Source: Breznakia blatticola
Lineage (GTDB): Bacteria; Bacillota_I; Bacilli_A; Erysipelotrichales; Erysipelotrichaceae
DNA: 32,000 nucleotides
Assembly (NCBI RefSeq): GCF_004365815.1
Contig: NZ_SODD01000023.1
Coordinates: 1 to 32,000 of the forward strand
Direction: 5' to 3'
Numbering within the stretch: position 1 is the stretch's first letter; every line of letters begins with the position of its first letter. Below the pieces are notes generated by a model. The model saw nothing but the letters and a program-made list of their open reading frames with translations. It was not told the origin of the DNA and did no database searches. The position numbers and the translations under genes were made by a program. This document shows, piece after piece, positions 4,244 through 26,256 of this stretch.

Positions 4244-4244
4244 T

Positions 4245-5076: not shown

Positions 5077-5098
5077 GTATTTTACTATCTTTCTTTAC

Positions 5099-6466: not shown

Positions 6467-6555
6467 TTTAAATTCTCCTTTTAATTTTTTGTTTGATATA
6501 CATGTAGTTTCCTTTATACTTCTTATTTCTACACAGCAAATTTCAATTTTACATA

Positions 6556-7938: not shown

Positions 7939-7992
7939 GTTACCACCTCCTTCTGCATTTTACATACCAGAACGATTTCGACTTTTTTGTCT

Positions 7993-8042
7993 TAAAAAAC
8001 AAAAAAGACCAATACCGAAAAAATAATTTCGATGCTGATCTT
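7993..8042 (-). terminator. Leader terminator of the EIIA-antiterminator-EIIBC operon
   Basis: Minus strand AAGATCAGCATCGAAA-ttat-TTTCGGTATTGGTCTT (Watson-Crick plus G-U pairs) is followed by TTTTGTTTTTT. The 5' arm overlaps the RAT 3' end. Confidence 0.7.
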
Positions 8043-8063
8043 GCCTACTTAAAGTAACAATTC
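8037..8063 (-). promoter_or_regulatory. RAT (ribonucleic antiterminator) target of a BglG/LicT-type antiterminator
   Basis: Minus strand GAATTGTTACTTTAAGTAGGCAAGATC compares with B. subtilis RATs GGATTGTTACTG..CAGGCAAGACC. It sits just downstream of a consensus promoter and overlaps the terminator arm. Confidence 0.75.
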
Positions 8064-8078
8064 AAACTATCTATTTTC

Positions 8079-8107
8079 ATAATAATCGAGAGAATGCGTT
8101 TTGTCAA
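8079..8107 (-). promoter_or_regulatory. Sigma-A promoter of the RAT-controlled operon
   Basis: Minus strand: TTGACA (8107-8102), a 17-nt spacer and TATTAT (8084-8079). Confidence 0.65.
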
Positions 8108-8137
8108 CCATTACATTTACTTTTATTATATAACATA

Positions 8138-8151
8138 AGCAAGCGTTTACA
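8138..8151. promoter_or_regulatory. cre-like (CcpA) palindrome upstream of the promoter
   Basis: TGTAAACGCTTGCT on the minus strand has 2 mismatches to TGNAARCGNWWWCA. It shares the core AAGCGTTTAC with the site at 4162-4175. Confidence 0.4.
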
Positions 8152-8190
8152 GATGTAGTTAAACTATGCACTTTCATCGGGGTATTATTT

Positions 8191-8210
8191 CTATATATTC
8201 CTATATATTC
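8191..8210. repeat. Exact 10-bp tandem duplication CTATATATTC x2
   Basis: Read directly from the sequence. A degenerate third copy, catatgtata, follows. It lies between the EIICB stop (8231) and the next promoter. Confidence 0.8.
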
Positions 8211-8230
8211 CATATGTATAGTGTTAAATT

Positions 8231-9667
8231 CTAGTTATTATGTTTCATTTGCTTTCCTAAAATGGATTCTAAATGTTCAACAATAGCACCTGCATTAGGT
8301 CCATATACAATTTGTATTTCATCACCAAACTGCATATATTCAATTGCCCCTGTTTGTTTCAATAATTCAAAATTAAATGCTCCAGGATTATGTAGATGAA
8401 AACGTACTCTTGTAATACAACAGTCGATTGCTTGTACATTGTTCATTCCGCCAACTGCATATATCAATGCTGTGCATATTGTATCAATTTCAGTATTTTG
8501 CAATGGTGTTGTCACTCGATGATCCAGTTCTATTTCCCGCCCTAGCGTATGCAAGTTATTGCGTTTAATGATGTACGTAAATCCAAAATAATACGCAATG
8601 GCTAGTACAACACCCATAACTAAAAGCATAAGCGGCATTTTTGTAAATGGCATCTGTAAACTTAACATAAAGTCGATAAATCCTGCACTGAAACTAAATC
8701 CTGCAATCCACTGAAACTGTGCAGCAATAAATACTGAAATTCCAGTTATAGCTGCATGCACTAAGTATAATTGTGGAGCGATAAACATAAACGAGAACTC
8801 TAAAGGTTCTGTCAGTCCAGTAAAAAATGAAGCGAACGCAGCTGATAATAAAAATGAGCGTACTTTATTTTTATTTTGTGGATATGCAGTTCTAAGCATC
8901 GCAAGTGCAGCTGCTGGCAAACCAAACATCATCACTGGAAAAAAACCGGCTTGATACATCCCTGTAACTCCATAAGTTCCTTGACTTGACCAAAAGTTTC
9001 CAATATCATTAATCCCCACTACATCAAACCAAAATACGGAATTAAGTGGATGATGCATTCCAATTGGAATTAAAAGTCGATTAAAAAATGCATAAATACC
9101 CGCACCTAATGGTCCTAATGAACTTATAAAATCACCAAACTGGATAAGCTTATTATAGATAAATGGCCATACAAAAATTAAGATACAACATAATCCTAAT
9201 GAAACAATCAATAAAGTAAGTAAGAGTATTACATTCTCATTTAACGTATCTAAGTGTAATTTATGTAATCGATTGTATACAGCAGAAGCCACAACTCCTG
9301 AAAGTATTCCAATGAACTGATTATCGATATGCTCAAATGGTTGATTAAAGTTATCGACTGGAAAATCGTACATATCAATTCTTTGTTGGGCGAGCACATT
9401 GGTTATTATTAAGAATACGAAGAGGCCTGCAAAAGCACTAATCCCCTTGTGATGATCACTTAATCCATAGGCGACACCAATGGCAAAAGCAACTGGCATA
9501 AATCCTAAAATTGCTTCACCAGAAGTACGTAAAATGACACTAAGAAAATGGACAAAGGTAGCATCCACACGTCCTAGCATGGCTCCAATACCAATTAAAA
9601 TAGCGGCAATTGGAAAAATTGCAATCGGTAATAATAATGCTTTTCCGATTTTATGAAGATAGTTCAT
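8231..9667 (-). CDS. PTS glucose/maltose/NAG-family EIICB permease
   Basis: 478 aa with EIIC motifs PIGMHHPLN and GLTEPLEFSFMF. The C-terminal EIIB reads AVGGMNNVQAIDCCITRVRF. The start overlaps the antiterminator stop (TAATG). Confidence 0.88.
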   Translation of the reverse strand: MNYLHKIGKALLLPIAIFPIAAILIGIGAMLGRVDATFVHFLSVILRTSGEAILGFMPVAFAIGVAYGLSDHHKGISAFAGLFVFLIITNVLAQQRIDMYDFPVDNFNQPFEHIDNQFIGILSGVVASAVYNRLHKLHLDTLNENVILLLTLLIVSLGLCCILIFVWPFIYNKLIQFGDFISSLGPLGAGIYAFFNRLLIPIGMHHPLNSVFWFDVVGINDIGNFWSSQGTYGVTGMYQAGFFPVMMFGLPAAALAMLRTAYPQNKNKVRSFLLSAAFASFFTGLTEPLEFSFMFIAPQLYLVHAAITGISVFIAAQFQWIAGFSFSAGFIDFMLSLQMPFTKMPLMLLVMGVVLAIAYYFGFTYIIKRNNLHTLGREIELDHRVTTPLQNTEIDTICTALIYAVGGMNNVQAIDCCITRVRFHLHNPGAFNFELLKQTGAIEYMQFGDEIQIVYGPNAGAIVEHLESILGKQMKHNN

Positions 9668-10497
9668 TAGATACTCACAATCTTATTAATATGAATCATC
9701 AAATATACAAGTTCATCTTTCGTAAGTGTATAATGATAATTCAATTTCACAATATCAAAAATATTCTCTACACATAACTCCATCTTCTCATGTTTATTAA
9801 TAAGTAAAGTATACATTTGATCAAGGTTTAATGGTTCTTTTGTGTCCTTGATAAATATATGTTGTGCTAGAAACTTCAAATGTGTTAATAATCTTGAAGT
9901 ATCAAGTGATTCATCATTAAACGAAATTCCAAAGACATTTTCAATAATCGTTTGCACATCTTTAACAAAAGCAACAATACGTTTTGCATCACGCACTTTA
10001 TTTCCTACAGTTGCATTCACAATATGCATCGCAATATAACTTGCTTCATCCTTTGGAAATTGAATTCCCGTATTTGCTTGAATCAAACGTAATGCCCACA
10101 AACCAATACGATATTCTTCTTTATATAAACTTTTGATTTCATCGTGCATTAAGTTTGGAATTTCCAACCCTCGTTTTTTACGATCCGCTGCATACCATAA
10201 ATGGTCTGTTAGCGAGATAAATATCTGGTTAGATAATTCTATTTCCATTTCATTAACCGCTTTCGTAGCTATCGCTTCAGCTATTTGAAAATACATAATC
10301 GGAGTACGATTTAGTAATTCAGCAAATTGCTTTTTTTGTTGGTCTTCAAATGAATAGACCTTTTCCACACGATTTTGATCTACTTCATCGTGTACTTTCC
10401 GATTAAATCCGATTCCATTCCCTGTAACGACATATTCGTTATCACCTTCTACAGCAACAACGACATTGTTGTTATAAATTCGACTTATCTTCATCAT
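9667..10497 (-). CDS. BglG/LicT-family PRD-containing transcription antiterminator (second copy)
   Basis: 276 aa. The CAT domain reads KISRIYNNNVVVAVEGDNEYVVTGNGIGFNRKV, with PRD-like ISLTDHLWYAADR and LLTHLKFLAQH. The start could be the second ATG at 10494. Confidence 0.88.
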   Translation of the reverse strand: MMKISRIYNNNVVVAVEGDNEYVVTGNGIGFNRKVHDEVDQNRVEKVYSFEDQQKKQFAELLNRTPIMYFQIAEAIATKAVNEMEIELSNQIFISLTDHLWYAADRKKRGLEIPNLMHDEIKSLYKEEYRIGLWALRLIQANTGIQFPKDEASYIAMHIVNATVGNKVRDAKRIVAFVKDVQTIIENVFGISFNDESLDTSRLLTHLKFLAQHIFIKDTKEPLNLDQMYTLLINKHEKMELCVENIFDIVKLNYHYTLTKDELVYLMIHINKIVSI

Positions 10498-10503
10498 TCA
10501 CCT

Positions 10504-11769
10504 CTATATTAATAATGACGCATTTGCTTGCGTAATGTATGCGTCTAATGCATCATACAATGCTTTTGGTGCAACCCCTTGCACTATCATTTCATTATCG
10601 TGTATTTCAACTTGTATACTTTTTGGTAGTTTCTCTATTTCGTTTTTTCGAATCAACATTTCTTCTTCTAATGTGATATATAATTTCTCTTCCAAAATGT
10701 GAAGTGTAATAATATTTTCTATTCCACCTACAACATGGATAAACTGTGCAACTTGCTTTTCATCAAGTTGTATACGTTGTCCTTTATGAATCAAATCATC
10801 AATATGATTTCTAGCAAGATAGAAGCTTATCACACACAAGAAACTTCCACCGATAAGCATGCTTACCATATTTGGTTGACTGATGATTTCCCATATCCAT
10901 AATATACTTTGCAACACATAAAACAGTAACATATATAACGGATTAAACGTAAATAGTAGAAATTGAAACACCAATGGATCACCTTGAATCATGGCACCAA
11001 TTCCAACAAGTAAAAATACAAGTCTCCATTCTTTTAAGGCTGCTTTATGTTTACTATTATACAAAAGTATAAGTACTAGTGGAATCACGATCTGCATCAA
11101 AATTGTTTGGTTTGTAAAGAAGATGGCATGTTCTTGCAATAATTCTAGAGATGAGATCCCAATAAATGACAACAAGACCTGTAACCACATATATACTATA
11201 GGACCTATAGTTTCTATATTTCGTACTTGCAACAGCCATGCAACTGCTCGATACATAAACGGCCAAATAATGATAAGTAATGAACCGATAATTATCATTA
11301 CAAGTCCGGTAATGATTGGTACCAAGCGTTTTCCTGAAAAGAATGCTAACCCGCTTGGTAGTTGGACATTATAAAATCGATTATATATACTTGCTCCAAG
11401 TAATCCACACATAATTCCCATGCATCCATTTTGAATACTTGTATAATCAAATTGAAGTACAAATGAACAACCTTCCAATGCTTTAGCAAGTGTTTCATTG
11501 GATGCAATATGAATCAGTACTACATAACCAATCATTCCACTTAATACACTTGTACCATCTTTTCGTTTTGCAAAGAACATCGCAAAACTAGCCGCATATA
11601 ACAATGGCAAATATTGTATATATGCACGATAGGTTTCCATAAACATTCTACCTACATGAAATGAAAATGATGTATTTATAAAATCACCAAAGACATAAAG
11701 ACCATACAAAATTGGAACAAAAAGGGTTGGATACAACAAACTTTTTGTATATTTTTTTACAAATTCCAT
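10504..11769 (-). CDS. PTS EIIC-EIIB-like membrane protein with degenerate catalytic motifs (probably not a phosphotransferase)
   Basis: 421 aa and multi-TM. The C-terminal domain aligns with EIIB (VVGGIENI...), but the C-x-T-R-L-R signature reads L-E-E-K-L-Y. The EIIC GITEP motif reads IQGDP and the GxHH motif is absent. SD GGGAGGAG is strong and the frame is intact. Confidence 0.7.
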   Translation of the reverse strand: MEFVKKYTKSLLYPTLFVPILYGLYVFGDFINTSFSFHVGRMFMETYRAYIQYLPLLYAASFAMFFAKRKDGTSVLSGMIGYVVLIHIASNETLAKALEGCSFVLQFDYTSIQNGCMGIMCGLLGASIYNRFYNVQLPSGLAFFSGKRLVPIITGLVMIIIGSLLIIIWPFMYRAVAWLLQVRNIETIGPIVYMWLQVLLSFIGISSLELLQEHAIFFTNQTILMQIVIPLVLILLYNSKHKAALKEWRLVFLLVGIGAMIQGDPLVFQFLLFTFNPLYMLLFYVLQSILWIWEIISQPNMVSMLIGGSFLCVISFYLARNHIDDLIHKGQRIQLDEKQVAQFIHVVGGIENIITLHILEEKLYITLEEEMLIRKNEIEKLPKSIQVEIHDNEMIVQGVAPKALYDALDAYITQANASLLI

Positions 11770-11799
11770 GTTTACTCCTCCCTTTTTACTACACTCTAT

Positions 11800-11808
11800 A
11801 GTATAGCA
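11800..11808 (-). promoter_or_regulatory. Extended -10 promoter element for the EIIC-like/antiterminator/EIICB operon
   Basis: Minus strand reads TGcTATACT. This leaves a leader of only about 25 nt before the SD, with no RAT in it. Confidence 0.4.
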
Positions 11809-11824
11809 AGAAATACGATAAATC

Positions 11825-11853
11825 TTGACATTTTTTTTGGAATCAACTACGCT
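11825..11853 (+). promoter_or_regulatory. Putative sigma-A promoter of the plus-strand EIIA gene
   Basis: TTGACA (11825-11830), a 17-nt spacer and TACGCT (11848-11853). SD AGAGG lies at 11866-11870. Confidence 0.45.
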
Positions 11854-11878
11854 TATTTAAGAATTAGAGGTATATATT

Positions 11879-12361
11879 ATGTTTCATTTGTTAGGAAGAA
11901 AAAACAAACGAGTTCGCGTATATGCTCCAATTCAAGGTAGTATTGTTTCTTTAGATGAAATTATTGACCCTGTATTTTCACAACGTCTAGTTGGCGAAGG
12001 AGTTGCCATCAAATCAAATTCTGGCACCATTTATGCACCAGTAGATGGAACAATTCAATGGGCAATCCGTTCGAAACATGCCATTTCCATTCAAACAAAA
12101 CACAATGCAGTCATTTTAATTCATATTGGCTTACAAACCGATTCATCAAAAAGTGAATCCTATACACCGCTTGTTCCCAACGGAACAAACGTAAAAGCTG
12201 GTGATGAAATATTACACTTCTCACCTAATGAATATGAAGGACAAAACAACCATGTGATGATTCCGGTTATCTTACTAGATTCTCAGTTTTATCAAATGAG
12301 TAAAGTGAAAACAAGTGGATCTGCAGTACAAAAGAAAACAATACTTTTTGAATTTAAATAG
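11879..12361 (+). CDS. PTS EIIA-Glc-family protein, divergent variant
   Basis: 160 aa. Both His positions are kept (SKHAIS...VILIHIG), but the following segment reads GLQTDSSKSESY instead of the GIDTVNLQG(E/K)GF seen in the two other EIIA genes of this window. It is the only plus-strand gene. Confidence 0.8.
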   Translation: MFHLLGRKNKRVRVYAPIQGSIVSLDEIIDPVFSQRLVGEGVAIKSNSGTIYAPVDGTIQWAIRSKHAISIQTKHNAVILIHIGLQTDSSKSESYTPLVPNGTNVKAGDEILHFSPNEYEGQNNHVMIPVILLDSQFYQMSKVKTSGSAVQKKTILFEFK

Positions 12362-13734: not shown

Positions 13735-14064
13735 TTATGCAATATCGCGAAAGTCATAGGTAAAAGCTAACTTTCCACTTATATAGAACGAAGCTCTAAC
13801 TTGAATTAAACAAAACGTAGTTTTTGTATCATCTATATATTGCAGTTTTCCATGCATGGTTAGTTCATTATGATTATATATAGCATGGACATGCACATCA
13901 TCTTCATTGGAAAACTTTTCAATATCTTCTTTACAGTCATATGCAAAGTATATACCTTGATTATTGATTTCAACTTCATGTATCTGCAATGAATGGAAAT
14001 CATTTGTTACGCTACATGAAGTTGCAAGTTTTAGATGCATTTTCACCTTATCTAATCGTTTCAT
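13735..14064 (-). CDS. Hypothetical protein (109 aa)
   Basis: An open frame with SD AGAGGAAAG upstream of MKRLDK. I recognised no motif and saw no terminator before the MFS gene, so it is probably co-transcribed with it. Confidence 0.5.
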   Translation of the reverse strand: MKRLDKVKMHLKLATSCSVTNDFHSLQIHEVEINNQGIYFAYDCKEDIEKFSNEDDVHVHAIYNHNELTMHGKLQYIDDTKTTFCLIQVRASFYISGKLAFTYDFRDIA

Positions 14065-14133
14065 TTTCTTTCCTCTTTTCGTTGTCAATCAACATACATA
14101 ATACTTTAGTTATTGATTTGATTCGATATACAC

Positions 14134-15007: not shown

Positions 15008-16038
15008 AACGTTCCTTTCTTACGACTTTTTCCAAAAAGTAGTAATAGTAAATAGGGAGCTCCAATCACTCCAGTGATTACCCCAACTGGAAATCTTGTA
15101 CTAAAAGCAAATTGTCCAAGTAAATCAGCTGCTAATACTAAAATTACGCCAACGAGTCCAGAAGCAAATGCATATGATCGCCCTGCTCCAACTAGGCGTA
15201 ATGCAATCGGTCCTGCTAAAAAGGAGACAAAGGCTATAGGTCCACCAACACTTGTCGCAAAGGCTATTAAACAAACCGCACTTACAATTAATACAATACG
15301 TGATATACGCAAATTTACACCAAGTACAGCGGCTAAATCTTCACCCAATTCCAGGATGTTTAAATTTCTCTCACTTAATAAAATGATAAGTGTGAAGACA
15401 ATCACAACAATAGCCAGCAATGGAATACTTTTCATTTGAATTCCATTCAAACTTCCACTGAGCCAACGCATTGCTCCTGTAACTTCATATTGGTTAGCAC
15501 GTACCATCATATAGGATATTACCGCTTGTATTGCACTTTGCATTCCAATTCCGATAAGTACAAATCGTGAAGTTGAAAAATGACCAATATTGGAAAGTGC
15601 ATAAATAAGCAATGCACATAATAGACCGACAATACATGCAATAAAGGATACCATAAAGCCGCTAAGTCCAAGTATAAGAATACAGAATACTGCAGCCATA
15701 CTTGTCCCAGCACTAACTCCTACAATATCGGGACTTGCTAGTGTATTACGTAGCATCTTTTGAAAAACGCTACCTGCTAAACCTAAAGCAAAACCAGTAA
15801 ATGCACCTGCTAGCATTCGTGGTAAACGGATCGTAGAGATTGCAAAACTAGCTCCTTGTATTTGTTTTCCTGATAGCACTTCAAATATAGTTGCCAATGA
15901 ATAGTTTGTATTTCCTAGCATTAACATCAATAACATCAACACAATAGCGATAAGCACCAAAGATATAGTTGCAAGTATTGCGCGTCTTTTACGTCGTGCA
16001 TATCCAGCACGAACCTTGTTCTCTGTATAATTACTCAT
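15004..16038 (-). CDS. FecCD-family iron/siderophore ABC permease
   Basis: 344 aa and polytopic. It has the typical FecCD C-terminus (FPVGVITGVIGAPYLLLLL) and overlapping stop/start codons with its neighbours. Confidence 0.85.
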   Translation of the reverse strand: MSNYTENKVRAGYARRKRRAILATISLVLIAIVLMLLMLMLGNTNYSLATIFEVLSGKQIQGASFAISTIRLPRMLAGAFTGFALGLAGSVFQKMLRNTLASPDIVGVSAGTSMAAVFCILILGLSGFMVSFIACIVGLLCALLIYALSNIGHFSTSRFVLIGIGMQSAIQAVISYMMVRANQYEVTGAMRWLSGSLNGIQMKSIPLLAIVVIVFTLIILLSERNLNILELGEDLAAVLGVNLRISRIVLIVSAVCLIAFATSVGGPIAFVSFLAGPIALRLVGAGRSYAFASGLVGVILVLAADLLGQFAFSTRFPVGVITGVIGAPYLLLLLFGKSRKKGTL

Positions 16039-17033
16039 AATGATTTCACCTTCGATTTAATCACCACATAAATAAAGACTGGTGCTCCAATAAGTGCTGT
16101 AAGTATACCTACTTCAACTTCTGCTGGTTGAGCAATAAGTCGACCTAAAGTATCTGCAACACATAATAAAGCGGCTCCTGTAACTATCGATAAAGGGATT
16201 AGCACCTTTATATTGTTTTTAAACAATAATCGTAGTACATGCGGAACCATTAACCCAACAAAAGCAATGGGTCCTGCTAATGCTGTAATTGATCCAGCAA
16301 GTATAACTGAGGATAGTACAGTTAAAAACCGTATCTTTTTGACTTTTACACCAAGTCCAGTAGCCATTTCATCACCTAGTGCAAGTGCATTTAATGATGG
16401 AGCAACGTATACTGCCAAAGCAAAACCAAGTAATAAAAACGGTAATAGCATCAAAATGTTATCCCAACTCACTCCAACGACACTTCCAACTTGCCAGTGA
16501 CGAAAATTTGTTAAGGATTGTGCCTGTGGGAGTACCAACATATTAATTAATGAAGCAATTGCTCCATTACTAACCGCACCAGCGAGTGCAAGTTTCATAG
16601 GTGTTGCACCTTCTCTTCCTACTGAGGCAATCGTGTAAACAAATGCTGTAGTAATAGCTGCTCCAATAATTGCAAAGATAATAAACTGCTGTGCACTTGA
16701 AATATGAAAAAACGTAATTCCTGCAACGACAGCTAGTGCTGCTCCACTGTTGACTCCAAGTATACTTGGATCAGCAACTGGATTACGTGTGAGTGATTGC
16801 ATCAATAAACCAGATACTGCTAGTGCTGCTCCAGCAAGCAAAGCAAAGATCGTTCTTATCATTCGTTGTTGAATAATCGCACCATTGAAACTATCCGTTG
16901 AAGCGTTAAGGACATGATGAAGAACATCCCGTATTGGAATGTTCTTTGAACCTAGTGCCAGTGATAACATCACACTAATACATAGTGCTATAAGTATCAC
17001 AATTGTATAAACATATACGCTTCTTTTTTTCAT
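16035..17033 (-). CDS. FecCD-family iron/siderophore ABC permease
   Basis: 332 aa and polytopic, with a FecCD-type C-terminus (EVEVGILTALIGAPVFIYVVI). Confidence 0.85.
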   Translation of the reverse strand: MKKRSVYVYTIVILIALCISVMLSLALGSKNIPIRDVLHHVLNASTDSFNGAIIQQRMIRTIFALLAGAALAVSGLLMQSLTRNPVADPSILGVNSGAALAVVAGITFFHISSAQQFIIFAIIGAAITTAFVYTIASVGREGATPMKLALAGAVSNGAIASLINMLVLPQAQSLTNFRHWQVGSVVGVSWDNILMLLPFLLLGFALAVYVAPSLNALALGDEMATGLGVKVKKIRFLTVLSSVILAGSITALAGPIAFVGLMVPHVLRLLFKNNIKVLIPLSIVTGAALLCVADTLGRLIAQPAEVEVGILTALIGAPVFIYVVIKSKVKSL

Positions 17034-17036
17034 TTC

Positions 17037-18047
17037 TTACTTCACTTTCGCTGCGGCTTTTCCAAGTAGTTTTACATAATCTTTCATCGCATATGGAATC
17101 GATAAAGCAGTAGGTGTAGTATTTGCTGTTGCAAAATCTGTTGTATCATCAAGTACAACTACTGCACCATTAGCAATTGCAGGTATTTTTGATAATAGTG
17201 TATCTTTTTGCAAGACATCTAAGATATCTTTATCACCATAAATAACTAGAATATCTGCATCATTTAAAATTTCTGCTTGTTCTGCACTTACTGTTGCATA
17301 GAATACATCACTATCATCAGTAATACTTTTAACTGCTTTTGGTAATGATAAACCAAAATCTTGTAAGTAACTTGCTCTTGTTTCACCTGTTCCATAAACG
17401 AAGAAACTTGATGTATCTTCTGGATTAAACCAAGTAAATACAGCACTTTTTCCTTCGAATTCCGGATACTTTTCAACTTCACTTGCCATTTGTTTTTCTA
17501 AATCATTTACAAGTGCTTTTCCTTCTTTTTCTAGACCTAACCCTTTTGCATCTTGTAGAATTTGACTTTGCCATGTAATCATCCATGGTGTTTTCTCATA
17601 TGCAATCGTTGGGGCAATTTGACTCAATAGTTCATAATCTTCTTTCGAAAAACCTGCATATGCTGCTAGAATTACATCCGGTTTTGCATCTGCAATGGCT
17701 TCAAAATCAAGTCCATCTCCATCATTGAATATAATTGGTTCTACTCCCAATGTATCATAAGCTTCTTGTGTCCAAGGACGCATTTTTTGATCATCATGCA
17801 GTCCATAAGCTGGTGCTGACATCGCTACAGGAGCTACACCTAATGCCAAAGCAACATCTTGGTTCTCCCATTGAATACTTACGACACGCTCAGGTTTCTT
17901 TTCAATTGTAGTTTCACCAAATGCATGTTTGATAACTACAGGCCATGAACCATCACTACTTCCTGTTTCTTTATCACTACTACTTGTATTTGTACAACCT
18001 GCAACAACAAATAACATTGCTATAACTGTAATTAGTATTTTTTTCAT
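17037..18047 (-). CDS. Iron/siderophore ABC substrate-binding lipoprotein (class III periplasmic binding protein)
   Basis: It has a signal peptide with lipobox MKKILITVIAMLFVVAGC and heads the FecCD/FecE-type operon. I prefer the ATG at 18047 (SD AAAGG) over the upstream GTG at 18068. Confidence 0.8.
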   Translation of the reverse strand: MKKILITVIAMLFVVAGCTNTSSSDKETGSSDGSWPVVIKHAFGETTIEKKPERVVSIQWENQDVALALGVAPVAMSAPAYGLHDDQKMRPWTQEAYDTLGVEPIIFNDGDGLDFEAIADAKPDVILAAYAGFSKEDYELLSQIAPTIAYEKTPWMITWQSQILQDAKGLGLEKEGKALVNDLEKQMASEVEKYPEFEGKSAVFTWFNPEDTSSFFVYGTGETRASYLQDFGLSLPKAVKSITDDSDVFYATVSAEQAEILNDADILVIYGDKDILDVLQKDTLLSKIPAIANGAVVVLDDTTDFATANTTPTALSIPYAMKDYVKLLGKAAAKVK

Positions 18048-18069
18048 TCTCCATACCTTTCCTTCCACC

Positions 18070-18129
18070 GATAATTGTTAGTCTTGTCTAACCTCTATCA
18101 AATGTATCATTTACCTTCTAAACAGTCAA
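18070..18129 (-). promoter_or_regulatory. Promoter of the iron ABC operon with an operator-like imperfect palindrome at the transcription start
   Basis: Minus strand: TTGACT (18129-18124), a 17-nt spacer and TACATT (18106-18101). This is followed by GATAGAGGTTAGACAAGACTAACAATTATC (18099-18070), which has inverted GTTAG/CTAAC and GATA/TATC. Confidence 0.45.
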
Positions 18130-18270
18130 GTGAAATGTTTACTTGGCATGTACTGTAAAAAATAAAGAAAATATCTCTCATTTTTTGTGCAACATTTTCA
18201 TTCATTGGATTGTAAAATTGACGGGATCAACAATAAACCCATCATATCTTACTATTAATATTTACTATTC

Positions 18271-18292
18271 TATTAGTTTAAATAAACTAATA
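18271..18292. repeat. Perfect 22-bp palindrome TATTAGTTTAAATAAACTAATA
   Basis: Read directly from the sequence. It lies in the roughly 360-bp non-coding gap between purC and the iron operon. Confidence 0.85.
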
Positions 18293-18388
18293 TGAAAAAT
18301 CATACCTTGTTTCCTGATTGTATATGCTTTTTCCCTATTTCGAACGCAATTCGACAATGTCGAAAACATATGTATCATGGATAGAAAT

Positions 18389-18418
18389 TAAAAAAACACT
18401 ACCCATATGAGTAATGTT
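18389..18418 (-). terminator. Rho-independent terminator after purC
   Basis: Minus strand reads AACATTAC-tcatatgg-GTAGTGTT followed by T6-7. Confidence 0.6.
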
Positions 18419-18427
18419 TTCGTACAA

Positions 18428-19114
18428 CTATTTTTCGATTTTTTCTAGTAACATGTTTGCACATTCAATTTGGTTTGGAATATTTCCATTTTCATCTTTA
18501 ATGCGCCAAATGTCTGGAGTGATTTCATCAGCCACAACGACTTTTCCATTTTCGTCATATCCAAGTTCAATCTTGAAATCGATTAATGTATATCCCATAC
18601 TTGCAACTTCTGCACGTAGAACTTCTCCTACTTTTACAAGTACAGCTAATGCTTCATCGTATTGTCCAGGTTGTAAGAACCCTTTCATTAAACATAAACG
18701 TTCGCTAATTAGTGGATCACCTTGTTCGTCATCTTTTAGAGTTACTTCTAAGTAAGGTGGTTCAAAAGGAATTCCTTCTTCTAATGTAAAACGACGACAC
18801 ATACTTCCAGCTGTATAGTAACGAAGTACAAATTCTAATGGTGGCACAGTAACTTTACGCACTTCCATCAATCCTGCATCAATATCAGAACCAATGTAGT
18901 GTGTTGGAATTCCGTGTTTTTCCATTAATTCAAAGAAATAACTAGTGATTTTTAATCCTGTTTTTCCTTTACCTTCAACACTTCCACCGACTGTGTTACT
19001 TCCTGGATCAAATACTCCATTTTCACCAGTTGCACTATCCTTAAAGAATAGAAATACACGTCCAGCATCATCAGTTAATACATCTTTTGTTTTTCCCGAA
19101 TACAATGTTTTCAT
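18428..19114 (-). CDS. purC: Phosphoribosylaminoimidazole-succinocarboxamide (SAICAR) synthase
   Basis: 228 aa. It reads collinearly with B. subtilis PurC from memory: LYSGKTKDV, FKDSATGENG, PLEFVLRYYTAGSM, KDDEQGDPLIS, LIDFKIELG and ADEITPD. Confidence 0.9.
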   Translation of the reverse strand: MKTLYSGKTKDVLTDDAGRVFLFFKDSATGENGVFDPGSNTVGGSVEGKGKTGLKITSYFFELMEKHGIPTHYIGSDIDAGLMEVRKVTVPPLEFVLRYYTAGSMCRRFTLEEGIPFEPPYLEVTLKDDEQGDPLISERLCLMKGFLQPGQYDEALAVLVKVGEVLRAEVASMGYTLIDFKIELGYDENGKVVVADEITPDIWRIKDENGNIPNQIECANMLLEKIEK

Positions 19115-19213: not shown

Positions 19214-19657
19214 CTATAAGTTTTGTAACGGTATTTTATCTTGTTGTATCCGAGCTTTTAAATCAAGAACTTTTTGCTCAATTTGTTTTGCAGTTGCTGC
19301 AAATTCAGACATTGCTTTGCCACTAGGATCATCAAGTCCCCAGTCTTCTGTATACACACCAGGAATATTTGGACATTCTACATTACATCCCATTGTAATG
19401 ATGATATCAACTGTTGGAATATCTTGTAACAGTTTTGGATGTTGTGTAGATTCCATATCGATTGTATATAGTTCTTTTATAATTTGAACGGCATCGGGGT
19501 TGATGTTAGCTTTTACCATCGTTCCTGCACTATATACTTCCATTACATCACTTGCAAGTTTTCTAGCAAGCGCTTCTGCCATTTGTGAGCGGCAAGAATT
19601 ATGGACACATAAAAAAGCTACACGTTTTCTTTGGTGTTTCATATTGTACTTATGCAT
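19214..19657 (-). CDS. arsC: Arsenate reductase (thioredoxin-coupled ArsC) / low-molecular-weight phosphotyrosine phosphatase family
   Basis: It has the CX5R(S) P-loop VAFLCVHNSCRSQMAEA, a distal Cys pair (TMGCNVECP) and DWGLDDP. The start is ambiguous (19657 or 19642). Confidence 0.7.
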   Translation of the reverse strand: MHKYNMKHQRKRVAFLCVHNSCRSQMAEALARKLASDVMEVYSAGTMVKANINPDAVQIIKELYTIDMESTQHPKLLQDIPTVDIIITMGCNVECPNIPGVYTEDWGLDDPSGKAMSEFAATAKQIEQKVLDLKARIQQDKIPLQNL

Positions 19658-19763
19658 CTTTTTTACCTAAAGATGATCTGTATTCAATTAATTTCATAGC
19701 TAGTCCTCGCTCTTTCTGTTACATTGTACTTGGTTTTCTATGGATTGAAAAGTAATTATAATC

Positions 19764-19789
19764 AAAAAAACATGAACCGCGTGGTTCAT
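19764..19789 (-). terminator. Rho-independent terminator after the zinc-ribbon/PH-domain gene
   Basis: Minus strand reads ATGAACC-acgc-GGTTCAT followed by GT7. The plus-strand side also ends in a T-run, so it may work in both directions. Confidence 0.7.
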
Positions 19790-19799
19790 ATCTTTTTGA

Positions 19800-20294
19800 T
19801 TAGATTCTTTCGTGGTACTGAACATTTACAGAATCACGAATATCCAAAACTGCACGACGTATAATGTCTTTAACAGTAAATGCATCTAGAATATTACTTA
19901 GCACAAGTGTACCTTCTGTAATATCTGTTGTATAAATCGTGATATCCCCTACTTTTGCAAGACGATCCGTAATGGATTGTTTGACTTGAATGTCTTTCAC
20001 ATGACGAAGTTCAACTTCAACTTGTTTCTTTCCAATCAATCCATCAGTTACAATGATTCTTTCGTTTGTTACTTTATAACGTGTATCATTAAAAATCATT
20101 TTTGCTTTATCACCTAGTCCTTCAGGCTTTCCTTCCCATAAGACAACCTCTTTATCTGGTTTTTGATTCGTTGGTGATTCATGTACTTGGTTTGTTGTTG
20201 GTTTTCCATCAATTTGAATATTTGATAGATCTGTACCACATTTTGCACAAAAATTTGCATCTTGCGCATCAAATCCACATTTCGGACAGAACAT
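19800..20294 (-). CDS. Zinc-ribbon plus bacterial PH (bPH/YdbT-like) domain protein
   Basis: 164 aa. The N-terminus has CPKCG...CAKCG. The C-terminal roughly 110 aa match the bPH pattern (VLWEGKP...YKVTNERIIV...DIQVKQS..DR..VGDI). SD is GGAGG. No TM segment is present. Confidence 0.65.
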   Translation of the reverse strand: MFCPKCGFDAQDANFCAKCGTDLSNIQIDGKPTTNQVHESPTNQKPDKEVVLWEGKPEGLGDKAKMIFNDTRYKVTNERIIVTDGLIGKKQVEVELRHVKDIQVKQSITDRLAKVGDITIYTTDITEGTLVLSNILDAFTVKDIIRRAVLDIRDSVNVQYHERI

Positions 20295-20347
20295 TAGAAT
20301 CCTCCTTTTTGTTTATTATACTATATGCAACAATTTATTTCGATTGT

Positions 20348-22012
20348 TTATTCTAATACTAATTCATCATGTATCTCAATATCTTCTTTGATCTCACGTA
20401 ATTTTGCATTCAGTATTTTACGTCCTGGATACATTTCTAAATATGCAACGATAAGTTGATATACTTTTTGTGTACCTCCAGGGATTTTTCTTAGCATTTC
20501 AAGTGCATGTATAATAGGATTATGTATTTTTGCAGGTGGTGTTGAAAGTTCTATAAATCGCTCTTCATAATAAGTTATCAAATCATTTGTACAATATGGA
20601 ACTAAGATTTCAACATATTGATCCATTTGGTCTATCTTTTTCGCATATGCAAAAAGTAAATCATGATATCCTTCTTGTTTATAAACTCTTGCGATACCAT
20701 CAAAATCTAGTTTCTCTATAAACTTGCGTTTGTTGGTTTTCCACCATAGTGGACTCACTTGTTTGAGAAACACGTGATACATTGTATAATCTCCAATATT
20801 ATAATCAACTAACCAACACCGTAAGAGTTCATAGTAATCATGCTCTTTTCGATTATCCAAATAGATTGACTTTATTAAATCATTATATTTCACTGCCATA
20901 CTCATAAATTGAGGTTTCGATTTATTTTTGTCAATAAATGCAAATACATCTGTTTTCTTATCAGACTGAAGAATTTGTTCCAATTGATATACTAAAACAC
21001 ATTCAAAATCACTATACAATTCAAATATATCATTGTTTTTTGTGCCATTTGGTTTTCTTTTAATGATTTGATTTAATGCAATCAACCATGGTATTCCATT
21101 ATCTTGGTAATGTTGACTCATTCCTTGTTTTAAATATACATCAACAGCATTGCGAATTACGCTTTCGCGCTCTTCCAATAGAATATTATCAAATGCATCT
21201 AAAATCAGTGAAATACGATATGTATCATCTAAAAATATATGATTACTGCCTTCAATATTTCCTAAAGATTTCAAGATGACTTTTTTCTCAATATCATTCG
21301 CTTCTTTGATAACCACATATATCAACTCACATATTTTAGCTTGAATCGTTTTTTTATAATTATTGGAGTCTATCGTATCTAATATGCATATCGCTCTAAG
21401 TCCTTCCCATAATATCTCATATGTTTTTAGGATATCTTTAGATTTTAATGTCTGCAATACACTTGCTTCTATCTCTTCATATGCTAAATCGATTACCACT
21501 TCACTGTCTTGATCATCAATATAGTCATCATAGTAATCCGTGTAGCCATCACTGATATCTTCTATTCGATTTAATAGTTCTTGAAAATCTGTTGTTGGTT
21601 CAAAATCGTATGTCTGATTATCAAATGCAAGTTTTTTTAATTGATACGCATCAAATGTTTGAAAACTAAAACTCTTTAATCTATCAAGATAGTCATGTTC
21701 TTTCTTCTTGCTAGCTCTAATGTATAATTGATTCTCTAAAATGTCCTCTTTCTCACAAACTTCCAATATAACAGCTACTAAATGTTTACAGTTATTCCCA
21801 CTTTGGAAGTGAGGACAACTACATTTCATTTGCACAATCTCATTATTGGAAACTTCAATCATCGTATTATACACTTTTGTACCATATACACGTGCATGAT
21901 ACAGCGTATCTTGTTTTTCTATTGCATCAACATAGCCATTATTAAAATATGCTCTTCCGCGTTTACAAACAAAATAATCAAACGCATCTTTCCACATAAC
22001 GAATTGTTCCAT
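20348..22012 (-). CDS. SWIM zinc-finger family protein, function unknown
   Basis: 554 aa with a CxCx8CxH signature (CSCPHFQSGNNCKH, residues 64-77). The rest looks helical and I recognised no catalytic motif. Its start lies 1 nt after the upstream stop. Confidence 0.75.
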   Translation of the reverse strand: MEQFVMWKDAFDYFVCKRGRAYFNNGYVDAIEKQDTLYHARVYGTKVYNTMIEVSNNEIVQMKCSCPHFQSGNNCKHLVAVILEVCEKEDILENQLYIRASKKKEHDYLDRLKSFSFQTFDAYQLKKLAFDNQTYDFEPTTDFQELLNRIEDISDGYTDYYDDYIDDQDSEVVIDLAYEEIEASVLQTLKSKDILKTYEILWEGLRAICILDTIDSNNYKKTIQAKICELIYVVIKEANDIEKKVILKSLGNIEGSNHIFLDDTYRISLILDAFDNILLEERESVIRNAVDVYLKQGMSQHYQDNGIPWLIALNQIIKRKPNGTKNNDIFELYSDFECVLVYQLEQILQSDKKTDVFAFIDKNKSKPQFMSMAVKYNDLIKSIYLDNRKEHDYYELLRCWLVDYNIGDYTMYHVFLKQVSPLWWKTNKRKFIEKLDFDGIARVYKQEGYHDLLFAYAKKIDQMDQYVEILVPYCTNDLITYYEERFIELSTPPAKIHNPIIHALEMLRKIPGGTQKVYQLIVAYLEMYPGRKILNAKLREIKEDIEIHDELVLE

Positions 22013-22013
22013 A

Positions 22014-22769
22014 CTACCAGATTAGCTCCTCAGATGGATATTCTATCGAACTATCAGTTAAGTCATATATATTACAATCGTATTTTTTAGCTGTTTTTGT
22101 ATATGATATGTACATTTCATAATAGGCATCTGGAAATTTGATGAAACGGTTTGCGATTGTTCTAACTTTCATTGGACGTTTTTCAACTTTCGTTTTTTCG
22201 AATTCAATGTTACATTTGTCTACATATAAAGCTAAATAATCCTTGTAGGAAACAGCACTTCTTTCGTATGAACGTATAAGTTTACTAGTAGCCTCAAAGC
22301 CAATTACTTCTTCAACAGCCTCCAATATCTTAGCACTTAAGTAATTAATAAGACCTTTATCACGTAGATACATTGGATATGAATATATCCTTGCATATTT
22401 ATCTTCTAGTTCTTTCGTTGTAACTAATACTTTTGCATATTTAGCGAGTTTTGGTGCTGCAAATGCGTAAAAAATTGCTTGAGGAAACATGATATTAAAA
22501 CTATATATTATCGTTGTCTCATTGTAGATTTCCATATTTTCTCCAAAAACTTCTTCACTTACTTTGTTGATTTCGCGATCTCCTTGATATGCGTGACGCA
22601 TATCATAACACATTGCAAGTACTTGAAGTGATATACCATAATTTGGATCACTACTATCATCGTCAAATTTCGTTATATTATGCATTGCATCTACAAGTTC
22701 TGAAAAGTCACGATAGTTACCAGAAATTGTTACTCCTAAGAGATTTTTTGTTGGTTTTACTGTAATCAT
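22014..22769 (-). CDS. Hypothetical protein (251 aa), SWIM-operon member
   Basis: An open frame with SD GGAG 6 nt before ATG 22769 (MITVKPTK). It is separated by 1 nt from the upstream stop. I recognised no motif. Confidence 0.6.
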   Translation of the reverse strand: MITVKPTKNLLGVTISGNYRDFSELVDAMHNITKFDDDSSDPNYGISLQVLAMCYDMRHAYQGDREINKVSEEVFGENMEIYNETTIIYSFNIMFPQAIFYAFAAPKLAKYAKVLVTTKELEDKYARIYSYPMYLRDKGLINYLSAKILEAVEEVIGFEATSKLIRSYERSAVSYKDYLALYVDKCNIEFEKTKVEKRPMKVRTIANRFIKFPDAYYEMYISYTKTAKKYDCNIYDLTDSSIEYPSEELIW

Positions 22770-22770
22770 T

Positions 22771-23046
22771 TTATTCTCCATTCTTCCAATCAGCGATATT
22801 ATATTCGTTCAGTAATTCTTGTGCTCTTTGTATTCCTTCATCACTAAAAGAAATATATTTAGATTTACTTGGATGTTTTCCTTGGTAGATGAGTTCATCA
22901 TTTGCAAGCTTATTTATTGCACTAAATGAATAACCCTTCAACGATCGTATATCATCAGGATATCCTGGAATTAATGTCTCATTATATCTTGTTAAGTACA
23001 TAAGTATAAGTGTCAACTCTTCTACTGCTTGATTTGGATTTCTCAT
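22771..23046 (-). CDS. Small hypothetical protein (91 aa), possibly a winged-helix-like fold
   Basis: SD GGAGG lies 7 nt before ATG 23046 (MRNPNQ). The ORF-track ATG at 23064 has no SD and sits about 6 nt from the predicted transcription start. The pattern LTLILMYLT...KGYSF...SKSKYISFSDEGIQRAQELL recalls DUF-only small Firmicute proteins from memory; I have not verified this. Confidence 0.55.
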   Translation of the reverse strand: MRNPNQAVEELTLILMYLTRYNETLIPGYPDDIRSLKGYSFSAINKLANDELIYQGKHPSKSKYISFSDEGIQRAQELLNEYNIADWKNGE

Positions 23047-23076
23047 ATTAGGCCTCCCTGACATTTTTATACTTTC

Positions 23077-23085
23077 ATCATACCA
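23077..23085 (-). promoter_or_regulatory. Extended -10 promoter element (TGgTATGAT) of the SWIM operon
   Basis: Read on the minus strand, immediately downstream of the terminator at 23100-23135. Confidence 0.4.
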
Positions 23086-23099
23086 TACGTAAATATTCG

Positions 23100-23135
23100 A
23101 AAAAACAAAAAGCGATACATCCTATGACATATCGC
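23100..23135 (-). terminator. Rho-independent terminator after the fused ABC gene
   Basis: Minus strand reads GCGATATGTC-atag-GATGTATCGC (10 bp including 2 G-U pairs) followed by TTTTTGTTTTTT. Confidence 0.7.
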
Positions 23136-23151
23136 AATTATTCATTATATT

Positions 23152-26100
23152 CTATTCACTTCGTAGTGCTTCAACTGGATCTTTTCTAGCTGCTGCGGAA
23201 GCAGGAATTAGTCCAGAAATAAAAGCTAAGAACATACTAATACCAATTAGTACTAGTGCTGCAGTTGGATGTAATTGTGCAATATTGGCAATACCAATTT
23301 CATCGTAGACGATAACATTGGCAATCGCGCTAATAATATATGTCACAACAATACCAATAGCACCAGCAGTAAATCCGATAATTAATGTCTCAGAATTAAA
23401 GACACGACGTATATCTCGCTTACTTGCACCAATTGCTCGTAAGATTCCAATTTCCTTTTTCCGTTCAAGTACAGATATATATGTAATAACTCCAATCATA
23501 ATACTTGAAACGATTAACGATATTGCCACAAATGCAATTAATGCATAGCTTACAGTGTCCACAATATCTGTTACTGATGACATCAAAGTTCCTACTAAAT
23601 CTGTATATTTCACAACCTTTGTTTCTTGGTTTGATTGTTTCATATCATCATTATACGTATCTAGAAACGAAATGATGTTTTCTTTTGTCGTAAAGTCTTT
23701 TGGATAAATACTAATTTGGTTTGGTGCATTTTTATCTGCATAACCAAATGCACGTAGATTGTTTTCAAATGATGATTCTTTTGGATTCATCATCGCTTGA
23801 ATTAAATCCACCATATCATCTTCAGTTACATTAATCTTAAATGCATTTTGTAGTGCATTGGTATCAATCGATAAAGCACTTTGTAGTTGATACGGTAATT
23901 GTGCAATCGTTGCATCAACTTGTCCTTGAATTTGACTTTGTACTGACTGCATTAATTGTGTCATATAACTTTGCATAGATGTTGTTATATAGTTTTGGAT
24001 AACTGCAGTTAGTTGTTCATTAACTCCAGAATCACCTATGACACTTTGTAGTTCACTTGCAATTTTTTGTTGGACTGCAGGACGCGTAAAGTATTCATTT
24101 AGATTTTGCATAAACACTGCAGGATCTGTTACTCCTGCTTGAATCTGTTCATTAATAAAATCTTGTATCACGCCTGTCATAATTGCAGTCAACTGATCCG
24201 TTGGAATTTGTACTTGTCCAGCAAGTTGTTCTGTAAGTGCACTTACATCCATTTCTGGTGGCTGTACTTGTGAGATATCAACATTGAATAGACTAGACGT
24301 ATCAATTGTAATCTTGCTTGTATCTATATTGAATGCCGAACGAATCGCATTTTCATCAACAGTAAATAATGAAGCTAAATCAAATTGATTTTGTCTATTT
24401 TCTTCAGTTTCAGCAACAAATGACTTTCCACTTAATACATTCGTTGTTGGTTTAGCAAGTTGCTCTTGTACTAATTTCTCATCCTTTGCCTCTTCCATTA
24501 AGTAGCTGATTAGTTCAGGTGAGTAATTAATTCCAGTTGATAATGATGTTACATTTGCATCAGGATCTGCTTGCACAATCCCAACAATTTTTAAATTCAC
24601 TCCATCTGCAACAACATTTTTCATATGTGCTTGATCATCTGACTTATCTAACCATACGTTATGCTCTTGATCAAATACATATTTTTGTGTTGGATTGATT
24701 ACTTTTAAATTTGTTGCAAGAATTTCATCATAACTTACATCTTTTGCACCTTTATTTAAATCCAATTTTTTCGTTGGATCATTCACAAACGCATCAAGCA
24801 TTTCTTTTAATTGATTGCGATCATTAATTCCTAAAGTATAAAGCATATAATCGGATACTCTTCCACTTGGTGAAAGTACCATCACTGCTTCGTCGTATGC
24901 TTTAGGCCATCTTCCTGCTTTAATGTCGTATTGGTTTTCAAACATACTACTATCACCAGGAAGTTCATAGAAATTGTTCATCATCGAAACACCACTTCCC
25001 ATGACTGCATTCATACCTGATGTTGAAGAAAATCCATAGTTTGACATCAAGGCATCAGGGTTTACTTGAGATATCGTTTTTGAAGTATCACCAAGATAAA
25101 TCTGTGGTGTAACATCATATGTATATTGAATGTTTTTTACATACGGGTCAATTTCTTTCCCATTGTTTTCAATATATGCTTTTAATGATTTCAAATCATT
25201 TTTATTTTGCGCGCTAAACATTGTTTCAAGAACCGTATTGACGCCAATTTCACCTTTATTTTTGCCGGAATCATTATCACCATTTTGATTTGGTGCATTG
25301 CTTATAAAACTCGTAATATCAATTCCTGATGATTGAATCGTCAGTGGATAGATACTCATCGTATCTTCTTCAATATCACCAATGTATGCATTGATACCAC
25401 TTGCTAATGCAAGAATTGCGGCAATCCCAATGATTCCTATTGAACCTGCAAGTGAAGTAATAAACGTTCTTCCTTTTTTGGATAACAAGTTACTAAACGA
25501 TAGCGATAATGCTGTAAATAAAGACATATTTACACGATTTGGTTTTTTTGCAGTTTTTACTTCCGCTTCCTCTTTTGGCGTAACCGGATTAGTATCACTT
25601 TCAATCACCCCATCACGTAAACTAATGATACGATTTGCATAATCTTGAGCAAGTTCTGGATTATGTGTAACCATAATAACTAATCGATCTTTAGCGATTT
25701 TTGTTAGTAAGTCCATAACTTGCACACTTGTTTTTGTATCTAGAGCACCTGTTGGTTCATCTGCTAAGAGTATTTCAGGATTGTTGATAAGTGAACGTGC
25801 AATTGCAACACGTTGCATTTGTCCCCCACTTAATTGACTTGGTAGTTTTTTTACATGGTCTTCCAATCCTACCTCTTTTAAAGCTGCAAGTGCGCGTTTG
25901 TGTCGCTCTTTTTTTGAAACACCACTTATCGTTAATGCAAGTTCAACATTTGCTAGTACACTTTGGTGTGGTATTAAATTGTAGCTTTGAAAAACAAATC
26001 CAATTCGATTGTTTCGATATGTATCCCAGTCGGAAGCTTTGTATTTTTTGGTAGATATCCCATCGATCTCTAAGTCCCCTGATTCGTATTGGTCAAGCCC

Positions 26101-26256
26101 ACCTATAATATTTAACATCGTCGTTTTTCCAGAACCACTTGGTCCTAAAATTGCGACGAATTCATTATCACGAAATGTTACACTGACATCATCCAAGGCA
26201 ACTTGAACAAAATCCTGTGTTTTATATGATTTTCGAATTTTTTTGAGTTTTAACAT
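23152..26256 (-). CDS. Fused MacB/FtsX-type ABC transporter: N-terminal ATPase, single FtsX permease module and a very large extracytoplasmic domain
   Basis: 1034 aa. The ATPase has Walker A GPSGSGKTT, signature LSGGQMQR and Walker B LLADEPTGALD. TM1 lies at about aa 262-290 and a C-terminal FtsX-type 3-TM bundle runs from about aa 903. Roughly 610 aa lie between them, including a Q-rich segment. Confidence 0.85.
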   Translation of the reverse strand: MLKLKKIRKSYKTQDFVQVALDDVSVTFRDNEFVAILGPSGSGKTTMLNIIGGLDQYESGDLEIDGISTKKYKASDWDTYRNNRIGFVFQSYNLIPHQSVLANVELALTISGVSKKERHKRALAALKEVGLEDHVKKLPSQLSGGQMQRVAIARSLINNPEILLADEPTGALDTKTSVQVMDLLTKIAKDRLVIMVTHNPELAQDYANRIISLRDGVIESDTNPVTPKEEAEVKTAKKPNRVNMSLFTALSLSFSNLLSKKGRTFITSLAGSIGIIGIAAILALASGINAYIGDIEEDTMSIYPLTIQSSGIDITSFISNAPNQNGDNDSGKNKGEIGVNTVLETMFSAQNKNDLKSLKAYIENNGKEIDPYVKNIQYTYDVTPQIYLGDTSKTISQVNPDALMSNYGFSSTSGMNAVMGSGVSMMNNFYELPGDSSMFENQYDIKAGRWPKAYDEAVMVLSPSGRVSDYMLYTLGINDRNQLKEMLDAFVNDPTKKLDLNKGAKDVSYDEILATNLKVINPTQKYVFDQEHNVWLDKSDDQAHMKNVVADGVNLKIVGIVQADPDANVTSLSTGINYSPELISYLMEEAKDEKLVQEQLAKPTTNVLSGKSFVAETEENRQNQFDLASLFTVDENAIRSAFNIDTSKITIDTSSLFNVDISQVQPPEMDVSALTEQLAGQVQIPTDQLTAIMTGVIQDFINEQIQAGVTDPAVFMQNLNEYFTRPAVQQKIASELQSVIGDSGVNEQLTAVIQNYITTSMQSYMTQLMQSVQSQIQGQVDATIAQLPYQLQSALSIDTNALQNAFKINVTEDDMVDLIQAMMNPKESSFENNLRAFGYADKNAPNQISIYPKDFTTKENIISFLDTYNDDMKQSNQETKVVKYTDLVGTLMSSVTDIVDTVSYALIAFVAISLIVSSIMIGVITYISVLERKKEIGILRAIGASKRDIRRVFNSETLIIGFTAGAIGIVVTYIISAIANVIVYDEIGIANIAQLHPTAALVLIGISMFLAFISGLIPASAAARKDPVEALRSE

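Follow-up and report, generated by a model that had tools for sequence, protein, structure and literature searches.

An otherwise mostly stand-alone SWIM-solenoid gene coupled to DUF6429 and DUF6904 in Breznakia blatticola: a facultative association of three uncharacterised families

When three genes are packed into one transcript with hardly a nucleotide between them, do they work together or do they merely share a promoter? The question is raised by a locus of the cockroach-gut bacterium Breznakia blatticola (Erysipelotrichaceae; assembly GCF_004365815.1, contig NZ_SODD01000023.1), of which we analysed positions 1 to 32,000, a stretch of 32,000 nucleotides (nt) hereafter called the window. 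Its minus strand carries, one directly behind the other, genes for a DUF6429 protein (gene 1, 91 amino acids), a DUF6904 protein (gene 2, 251 amino acids) and a protein made of a SWIM zinc-binding domain and an alpha-solenoid (gene 3, 554 amino acids). A previous sequence-only reading of the window had taken this trio, together with a neighbouring gene, for a "fixed 3(+1)-gene module". Our analysis leads to a different picture, in which the three families are facultatively associated, each occurring mostly alone and close relatives differing in which part is lost. The families themselves are known and uncharacterised; what is new is that a SWIM-solenoid gene, which as a rule stands alone, is found coupled to two DUF genes, in an arrangement that recurs once elsewhere. 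The stand-alone SWIM proteins of bacteria are a very large family without known function, one branch of which is listed as a phage-defence candidate. By supplying concrete candidate partners, the rare coupled form might reveal the role of the whole family.

In Breznakia blatticola the three genes constitute one operon (coordinates in Table 1); the products of genes 2 and 3 have identical counterparts among the NCBI proteins of this species. Gene 1 starts at ATG 23046, preceded 7 nt upstream by the ribosome-binding site GGGAGG (23058-23053). Its stop codon, TAA at 22773-22771, is separated by one base (a) from the start of gene 2 at ATG 22769, and the TAG of gene 2 at 22016-22014 by one base (t) from ATG 22012 of gene 3. 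The single-nucleotide gaps claimed in the sequence-only reading are therefore found as described when the junctions TAA-a-ATG and TAG-t-ATG are read directly. The same holds for the terminator and the extended -10 element that had been placed ahead of the trio. The upstream ATP-binding cassette (ABC) gene, which encodes an ATPase-FtsX protein of 1034 amino acids, ends in an intrinsic terminator (23135-23112 in the terminator scan) whose 10-bp stem holds 4 GC pairs and is followed by the T-run TTTTTGTTTT, and the operon is shielded by it from upstream transcription. Between this hairpin and gene 1 lies TGGTATGAT, a putative extended -10 promoter that would drive the trio; TGCTAAAAT, which resembles it, stands at the matching position in a sister Breznakia genome (locus L001). 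Downstream, our terminator scan agrees with the earlier statement that no convincing terminator separates the 554-amino-acid gene from the next gene, of 164 amino acids, and finds the next site at 19802-19759.

The protein encoded by gene 3 matches the Pfam SWIM family (PF04434) over residues 58-84, with an E-value of 2.1e-07 and 30.7 bits for a threshold of 19.6. The spacing of its motif is C64-x-C66-x8-C75-x-H77, and the four residues are invariant in the 43 full-length homologues of our alignment (A1), in which the conserved positions of the family lie mostly within the first ~80 residues. The start of the gene is ambiguous. ATG 22012 abuts the upstream stop codon and yields 554 amino acids; ATG 21997 is the start of the NCBI model, yields 549 amino acids and fits the family consensus N-terminus MxWxxxF, and translation may begin at this second ATG. 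A word-indexed homologue search with the protein returned only itself. An exhaustive HMMER search of 1.84 billion representatives gave 1665 clusters at E <= 1e-3, many of which match over a short stretch confined to the SWIM domain; among the 150 representatives listed, dozens of proteins of 537-570 amino acids align with it end to end (~6-540) at 19-35% identity. In all, the full-length homologues number more than 100, at 20-35% identity. The family of which gene 3 is a member is large, found in Firmicutes and made up of SWIM and alpha-solenoid proteins (~540-580 amino acids) whose genes mostly stand alone.

An AlphaFold2 model built from alignment A1, with a predicted local distance difference test (pLDDT) score of 85.7, displays a beta-rich SWIM region (residues 1-90), a disordered segment (102-134) and an all-alpha region (143-548). 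Both the SWIM call of the sequence-only reading and its description of a helical C-terminal region devoid of any recognisable catalytic motif are borne out. With this model, Foldseek retrieved TPR and other solenoid proteins (LGN, IFIT, APC subunits), ZSWIM8 and a giant-virus SWIM protein, with low template modelling (TM) scores throughout, and sequence and profile searches of the PDB gave no significant match. The eukaryotic ZSWIM8 is the substrate receptor of a cullin-RING ligase. It shares with gene 3 the succession of SWIM and alpha-solenoid (PDB 9rwz_N, Foldseek rank 7, E 6e-3); its profile match to gene 3 is weak and lies in the SWIM region (E 0.4), and with TM-scores < 0.2 the resemblance is one of architecture only. 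DpdE-type SNF2 helicases, the SWIM effector of type XIII retrons and MuDR transposases likewise have the SWIM zinc-binding motif in common with gene 3. Weak matches to the N-terminal part of DpdE came from 13/43 family members and gene 3 matches the retron SWIM_XIII profile at E 0.0014, the similarity of gene 3 to these enzyme-linked proteins being confined to the ~80-residue SWIM region. Among the window genes examined, none in or beside the operon encodes a helicase, a reverse transcriptase or a transposase, in line with the earlier remark that no SNF2 helicase lies nearby.

The two smaller proteins fall into uncharacterised families alone, as had been suspected. Gene 1 matches PF20008 (DUF6429) with an E-value of 4.8e-17 and 61.9 bits (gathering cutoff 31.6) over profile positions 2-70 of 71, and gene 2 matches the whole of PF21845 (DUF6904; positions 1-238 of 238) with 7.9e-46 and 157.2 bits (gathering cutoff 27). 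Between the window and the sister species, the ratio of non-synonymous to synonymous substitution rates (dN/dS) amounts to 0.19 for DUF6429 and 0.16 for DUF6904, which indicates purifying selection on both. The top PDB profile matches of the DUF6429 alignment are winged helix-turn-helix (wHTH) proteins of the MarR type, namely AF_1382 (2qvo), Hpr and SlyA; they span most of the domain and are non-significant (E 0.07-0.6). Judging from these matches, DUF6429 may be a small winged helix; they lend weak backing to the fold that the sequence-only reading had proposed for the 91-amino-acid protein.

The start of gene 2 agrees with the MITVKPT N-terminus of all its homologues. Across the 48 homologues aligned, DUF6904 has the invariant residues G17, D21, D56, R58 and D184 and the motif CYDxRHAxQGDRE. 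Sequence and profile searches of the PDB gave no significant match for this protein, and an AlphaFold2 model from 4 sequences was unusable (pLDDT 35.7). Comparison of the DUF6904 profile with the SWIM family, and with a kinase-like protein from the L019 locus described below, revealed no relationship. The searchable library held nothing relevant on DUF6429 or DUF6904 beyond one incidental listing of DUF6429, and no record of the adjacency of DUF6429, DUF6904 and SWIM-solenoid genes was found in searchable sources.

The full trio was seen once beyond the window, in locus L170, a distant metagenomic contig of 29% GC recovered through the SWIM homologue P0009. The genes follow one another there as MarR-like, GNAT, DUF6429, DUF6904 and SWIM, so that the trio keeps the order of the window, and the junctions TAA-ta-ATG and TAA-aa-ATG leave spacers of 2 nt. 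The flanking genes differ, and identity to the window proteins has fallen to 47% for DUF6429, 41% for DUF6904 and 27% for the SWIM protein. That order and tight coupling should persist at such divergence is difficult to account for unless linkage has been under some selection, and the presence of the trio in so distant a genome therefore argues that a looser, facultative association is real.

Partial forms of the trio point in the same direction. At locus L097 a DUF6429::GNAT fusion gene lies directly upstream of DUF6904 and is followed after 18 nt by a gene for a helical protein of 589 amino acids. As a candidate SWIM-less homologue of the solenoid, this last protein gave no phmmer match and, with hhalign, an alignment of the last 65 columns only (E 0.005, probability 7%). 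Locus L019 (4942-9759) and the near-identical L020 combine DUF6429, a P-loop kinase-like gene of 184 amino acids and a SWIM-family gene; these are the only two loci with DUF6429 near SWIM in a sample of one genome per species that comprises 80 loci, 70 of them with a full-length SWIM family member. Taken together, L170, the Breznakia pair, L097 and L019/L020 show an association that recurs without being obligatory and has DUF6429 at its centre, and a facultative functional link among the three families is plausible.

The same chromosomal site can be followed in two related genomes. The sister Breznakia (L001) is syntenic and reads ABC - CLC - DUF6429 - DUF6904 - bPH - 518-amino-acid protein - LMWPc - purC, without a SWIM gene. 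A third relative (L169) reads ABC - GDSL - CLC - SWIM (543 amino acids) - 521-amino-acid protein - LMWPc - purC, and is without DUF6429, DUF6904 and bPH. The SWIM proteins of the window and L169 are 34% identical overall (43% in the SWIM domain, 35% in the solenoid), in contrast with 76-96% for the flanking genes, which implies that here the SWIM gene either evolved very fast or was replaced by a distant allele. In the sister species no remnant of a SWIM gene could be recognised in the spacer between DUF6904 and bPH: the best local alignment scored 14 for a shuffle mean of 13.4, and 130/300 shuffles reached at least that score. Homology between sister and window picks up again exactly at the SWIM stop codon. 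The 518-amino-acid protein of the sister locus was considered as a diverged SWIM protein and set aside, BLASTP finding no similarity.

How, then, might the three products be related in function? We tentatively propose, with a confidence slightly below even, that they act together as a small recognition module, which would be non-enzymatic or weakly enzymatic. The SWIM-solenoid protein, conserved in its N-terminal SWIM and as a whole far more divergent than the flanks, would be a binding scaffold or a sensor, and DUF6429 would be a winged-helix adaptor or regulator binding DNA or a ligand. With its invariant Asp/Arg/His motif, DUF6904 would be the likeliest candidate for the active partner. The translational coupling seen in two lineages points to products made in fixed proportions that may form a complex.

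Several observations weigh against such a module. In the SWIM-family sample, DUF6904 is found in 0/70 other loci, 56/70 of which have >= 1.1 kb of upstream sequence. Conversely, among 80 other DUF6904 loci of metagenomic origin, a SWIM-family gene is found in 0/80 and DUF6429 in 1/80 (L097). The SWIM genome scan relied on the pattern CKH[ML][AV]A[VL][LM][YF], which the window protein (CKHLVAVIL) does not fit, and its 70 loci are thus drawn from the more remote majority of the family. To offset this bias, the eight SWIM representatives nearest to gene 3 were inspected singly; 7/8 are without the trio, some of the seven lying beside HEPN/MNT modules, methylase fragments or serine recombinases, and one (P0011) having just 67 nt of upstream sequence and hence an uninformative context. 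At the home site itself, the sister species retains DUF6429 and DUF6904 under selection without SWIM, and L169 has SWIM without both. The proposal also leans on features of the genes: an active role of DUF6904 would follow from residue conservation, and a complex of the three products is suggested by translational coupling. With these frequencies, and with a sister genome lacking SWIM and L169 lacking the other three genes, the fixed module of the sequence-only reading has to be abandoned.

The main rival to a joint function, which we hold to be somewhat unlikely, is that three independent genes became accidental neighbours, co-transcribed in a variable spot and sharing no function. Each family is indeed overwhelmingly found alone and amid heterogeneous immediate neighbours, no Pfam family recurring in > 3/83 cases for SWIM or in > 3/59 for DUF6904; gene content between ABC and LMWPc/purC varies among the three related genomes, and DUF6429 is solitary in Fusobacterium vincentii (L168, NZ_CP084075.1). 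Chance neighbourhood fits poorly with L170, where order and a spacing of 1-2 nt persist at 27-47% identity between different flanks, and with the four or more separate lineages in which DUF6429 adjoins DUF6904 or a member of the SWIM family, a count drawn from a DUF6904/SWIM-query sample that is biased to pairings. Were the association accidental, the supposed four-gene system would drop out and each of the three families would best be investigated by itself. In a toxin-antitoxin or toxin-immunity pair, DUF6904 would be neutralised or repressed by DUF6429, and SWIM would play an accessory part. This reading has the attraction of a small wHTH-like gene placed directly upstream of a larger one, to which it is translationally coupled and whose charged motif is conserved, and of a DUF6429-DUF6904 pair that is kept in the sister species. 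We consider it very improbable: DUF6904 goes without DUF6429 in 79/80 metagenomic loci and in the homologues P0004 and P0005, often beside housekeeping genes, DUF6429 goes without DUF6904 in L019 and L168, so that adjacency is not obligate, and for neither protein did Pfam, NCBIfam or PADLOC return a family of toxins, antitoxins or immunity proteins.

The sequence-only reading had also raised the idea of defence. In an anti-phage or other conflict system, the SWIM-solenoid protein would be a rapidly evolving PDC-S62-type sensor, DUF6904 would serve as the effector and DUF6429 would have a regulatory part. PDC-S62 is a computational single-gene phage-defence candidate in PADLOC-DB, of the same size and architecture as gene 3 (N-terminal SWIM, long helical region) and, like the SWIM family, mostly a stand-alone gene. 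It is matched by 41/43 full-length family members (best E 5e-27), for some of them colinearly over profile positions ~18-347 of 566. Gene 3 itself (E 3.5e-10) covers the SWIM part only, positions 24-103 of 566, which makes it a distant relative and not a member, and it differs further in being coupled to two extra genes. The 34% identity of the SWIM protein between flanks of 76-96% would suit a sensor of this kind, as would the company of other family members, which include neighbours of HEPN/MNT modules, MmeI/Eco57I-type methylase fragments, AAA_21/RloB-like pairs, Cas3, GmrSD and serine recombinases; some distant members lie by toxin-antitoxin or restriction-modification genes. On the other side, no experimental report of phage protection by PDC-S62, nor any relevant paper on it or on SWIM domains in anti-phage defence, was found in the searchable literature. 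No PADLOC model matched DUF6429 or DUF6904, and the trio corresponds to no PADLOC system, as the sequence-only reading had expected; Pfam and NCBIfam scans of the operon proteins showed no nuclease, NADase, pore or other effector domain. Many DUF6904 homologues lie amid housekeeping genes (guaA, fur, glycerate kinase). Searches of plasmid, phage and IMG/VR collections returned, for the three families, nothing beyond N-terminal SWIM matches and one DUF6429 copy from the Fusobacterium record, evidently a chromosome. The window neighbours are ABC, phosphotransferase system (PTS), purC, iron-transport, LuxR/MalT and surface-repeat genes, without defence-island or mobile-element context. Of the defence idea there remains the kinship of the family with PDC-S62; the setting, a housekeeping and PTS region rather than a defence island, speaks against it, and we judge an anti-phage system unlikely here. 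Also improbable in our view is the further proposal that DUF6429, DUF6904 and SWIM-solenoid constitute an undescribed modular three-component system acting in inter-genomic conflict or stress sensing. The SWIM-solenoid protein would then be a fast-diverging sensor to which an effector enzyme (DUF6904) and a winged-helix adaptor (DUF6429) are optionally connected, with middle or accessory parts that could be exchanged, as with the P-loop kinase of L019, the GNAT fusion of L097 and the GNAT gene of L170.

Table 1. Positions of the operon, its signals and the neighbouring unit in the window, followed by the trio on contig L170.
Feature	Position	Strand	Basis
Intrinsic terminator of upstream ABC gene (ATPase-FtsX, 1034 amino acids)	23100..23135	-	terminator scan and direct reading
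Putative extended -10 promoter of the operon, TGGTATGAT	23077..23085	-	direct reading, function inferred
Gene 1, DUF6429 protein, 91 amino acids	22771..23046	-	Pfam PF20008
Gene 2, DUF6904 protein, 251 amino acids	22014..22769	-	Pfam PF21845
Gene 3, SWIM and alpha-solenoid protein, 554 amino acids (549 from ATG 21997)	20348..22012	-	Pfam SWIM, homologues, AlphaFold2
SWIM zinc-binding signature CSCPHFQSGNNCKH (C64, C66, C75, H77)	21782..21823	-	direct reading, alignment A1
Promoter-like site TCGAAA-17-TATAAT of bPH gene	20315..20343	-	promoter scan, 10/12 matches
Zinc ribbon and bPH_2 protein, 164 amino acids, own transcription unit	19800..20294	-	Pfam
Terminator after bPH gene	19759..19802	-	terminator scan
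L170, DUF6429	1000-1278		
L170, DUF6904	1281-2042		
L170, SWIM	2045-3745		

The fourth gene, which the sequence-only reading had added to the module as its "+1", encodes the 164-amino-acid protein downstream of gene 3. It matches Pfam bPH_2 (PF03703) with an E-value of 3.5e-14 and 53.3 bits (gathering cutoff 22), shows additional zinc-ribbon matches and is related in PHROGs to phrog_3707 (E 1.8e-12); none of the three operon genes matched PHROGs, and NCBIfam gave no significant match for any of the four proteins. The block CGAAATAAATTGTTGCAT...TATAGTATAATAAAC, which holds the promoter-like site, is kept in the spacer before bPH in the sister species. Because this promoter block is conserved in a genome without a SWIM gene upstream, the bPH gene is a transcription unit of its own and loses its place in the module. 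Its counterpart in the sister species shares 93% identity with it, at a dN/dS of 0.06, and the gene is absent at L169 and L170.

On other aspects, the loci compared here offered several side observations. The 518/521-amino-acid gene of the home site (L001 6880-8436, L169 7654-9219) has no Pfam match and is absent from the window. Its two products are 37% identical to each other, and the flanks of L001 and L169 72-96% identical; the gene is a second highly divergent orphan at the same variable site. Synonymous divergence (dS) between window and L001 is 0.08-0.20 for purC, the periplasmic binding protein and FecCD (16035-19114 side) and 0.66-1.15 for LMWPc, bPH, DUF6904, DUF6429 and ABC (19214-26256 side). 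So sharp a shift along the locus may mark a boundary of recombination lying between LMWPc and purC.

As for DUF6429, L097 carries it as a fusion with a GNAT acetyltransferase (2788-3615), and in L170 a separate GNAT gene (450-905) lies directly upstream of it, which hints at a possible DUF6429-GNAT link. Genomes placed in two genera, Mediterraneibacter and Blautia, share the L019/L020 block, which carries on the opposite strand an AAA_21-type ATPase and a RloB-like gene. The Fusobacterium record L168 (2.1 Mb) is filed as a plasmid in PLSDB and bears just 1 annotated feature; it carries rsmH, ftsL and ligA and is evidently a chromosome.

In the window as a whole, Rfam detected nothing. A minus-strand open reading frame of 117 amino acids (13735-14088), with no Pfam match, is flanked by genes for an MFS transporter and an ABC ATPase. 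The region 132-12361, in which Rfam likewise detected no element, is a dense PTS cluster, where four EIIC/EIIB genes and three EIIA genes are accompanied by those for a family-4 glycosyl hydrolase, a BglG-type PRD antiterminator and an RpiR regulator.

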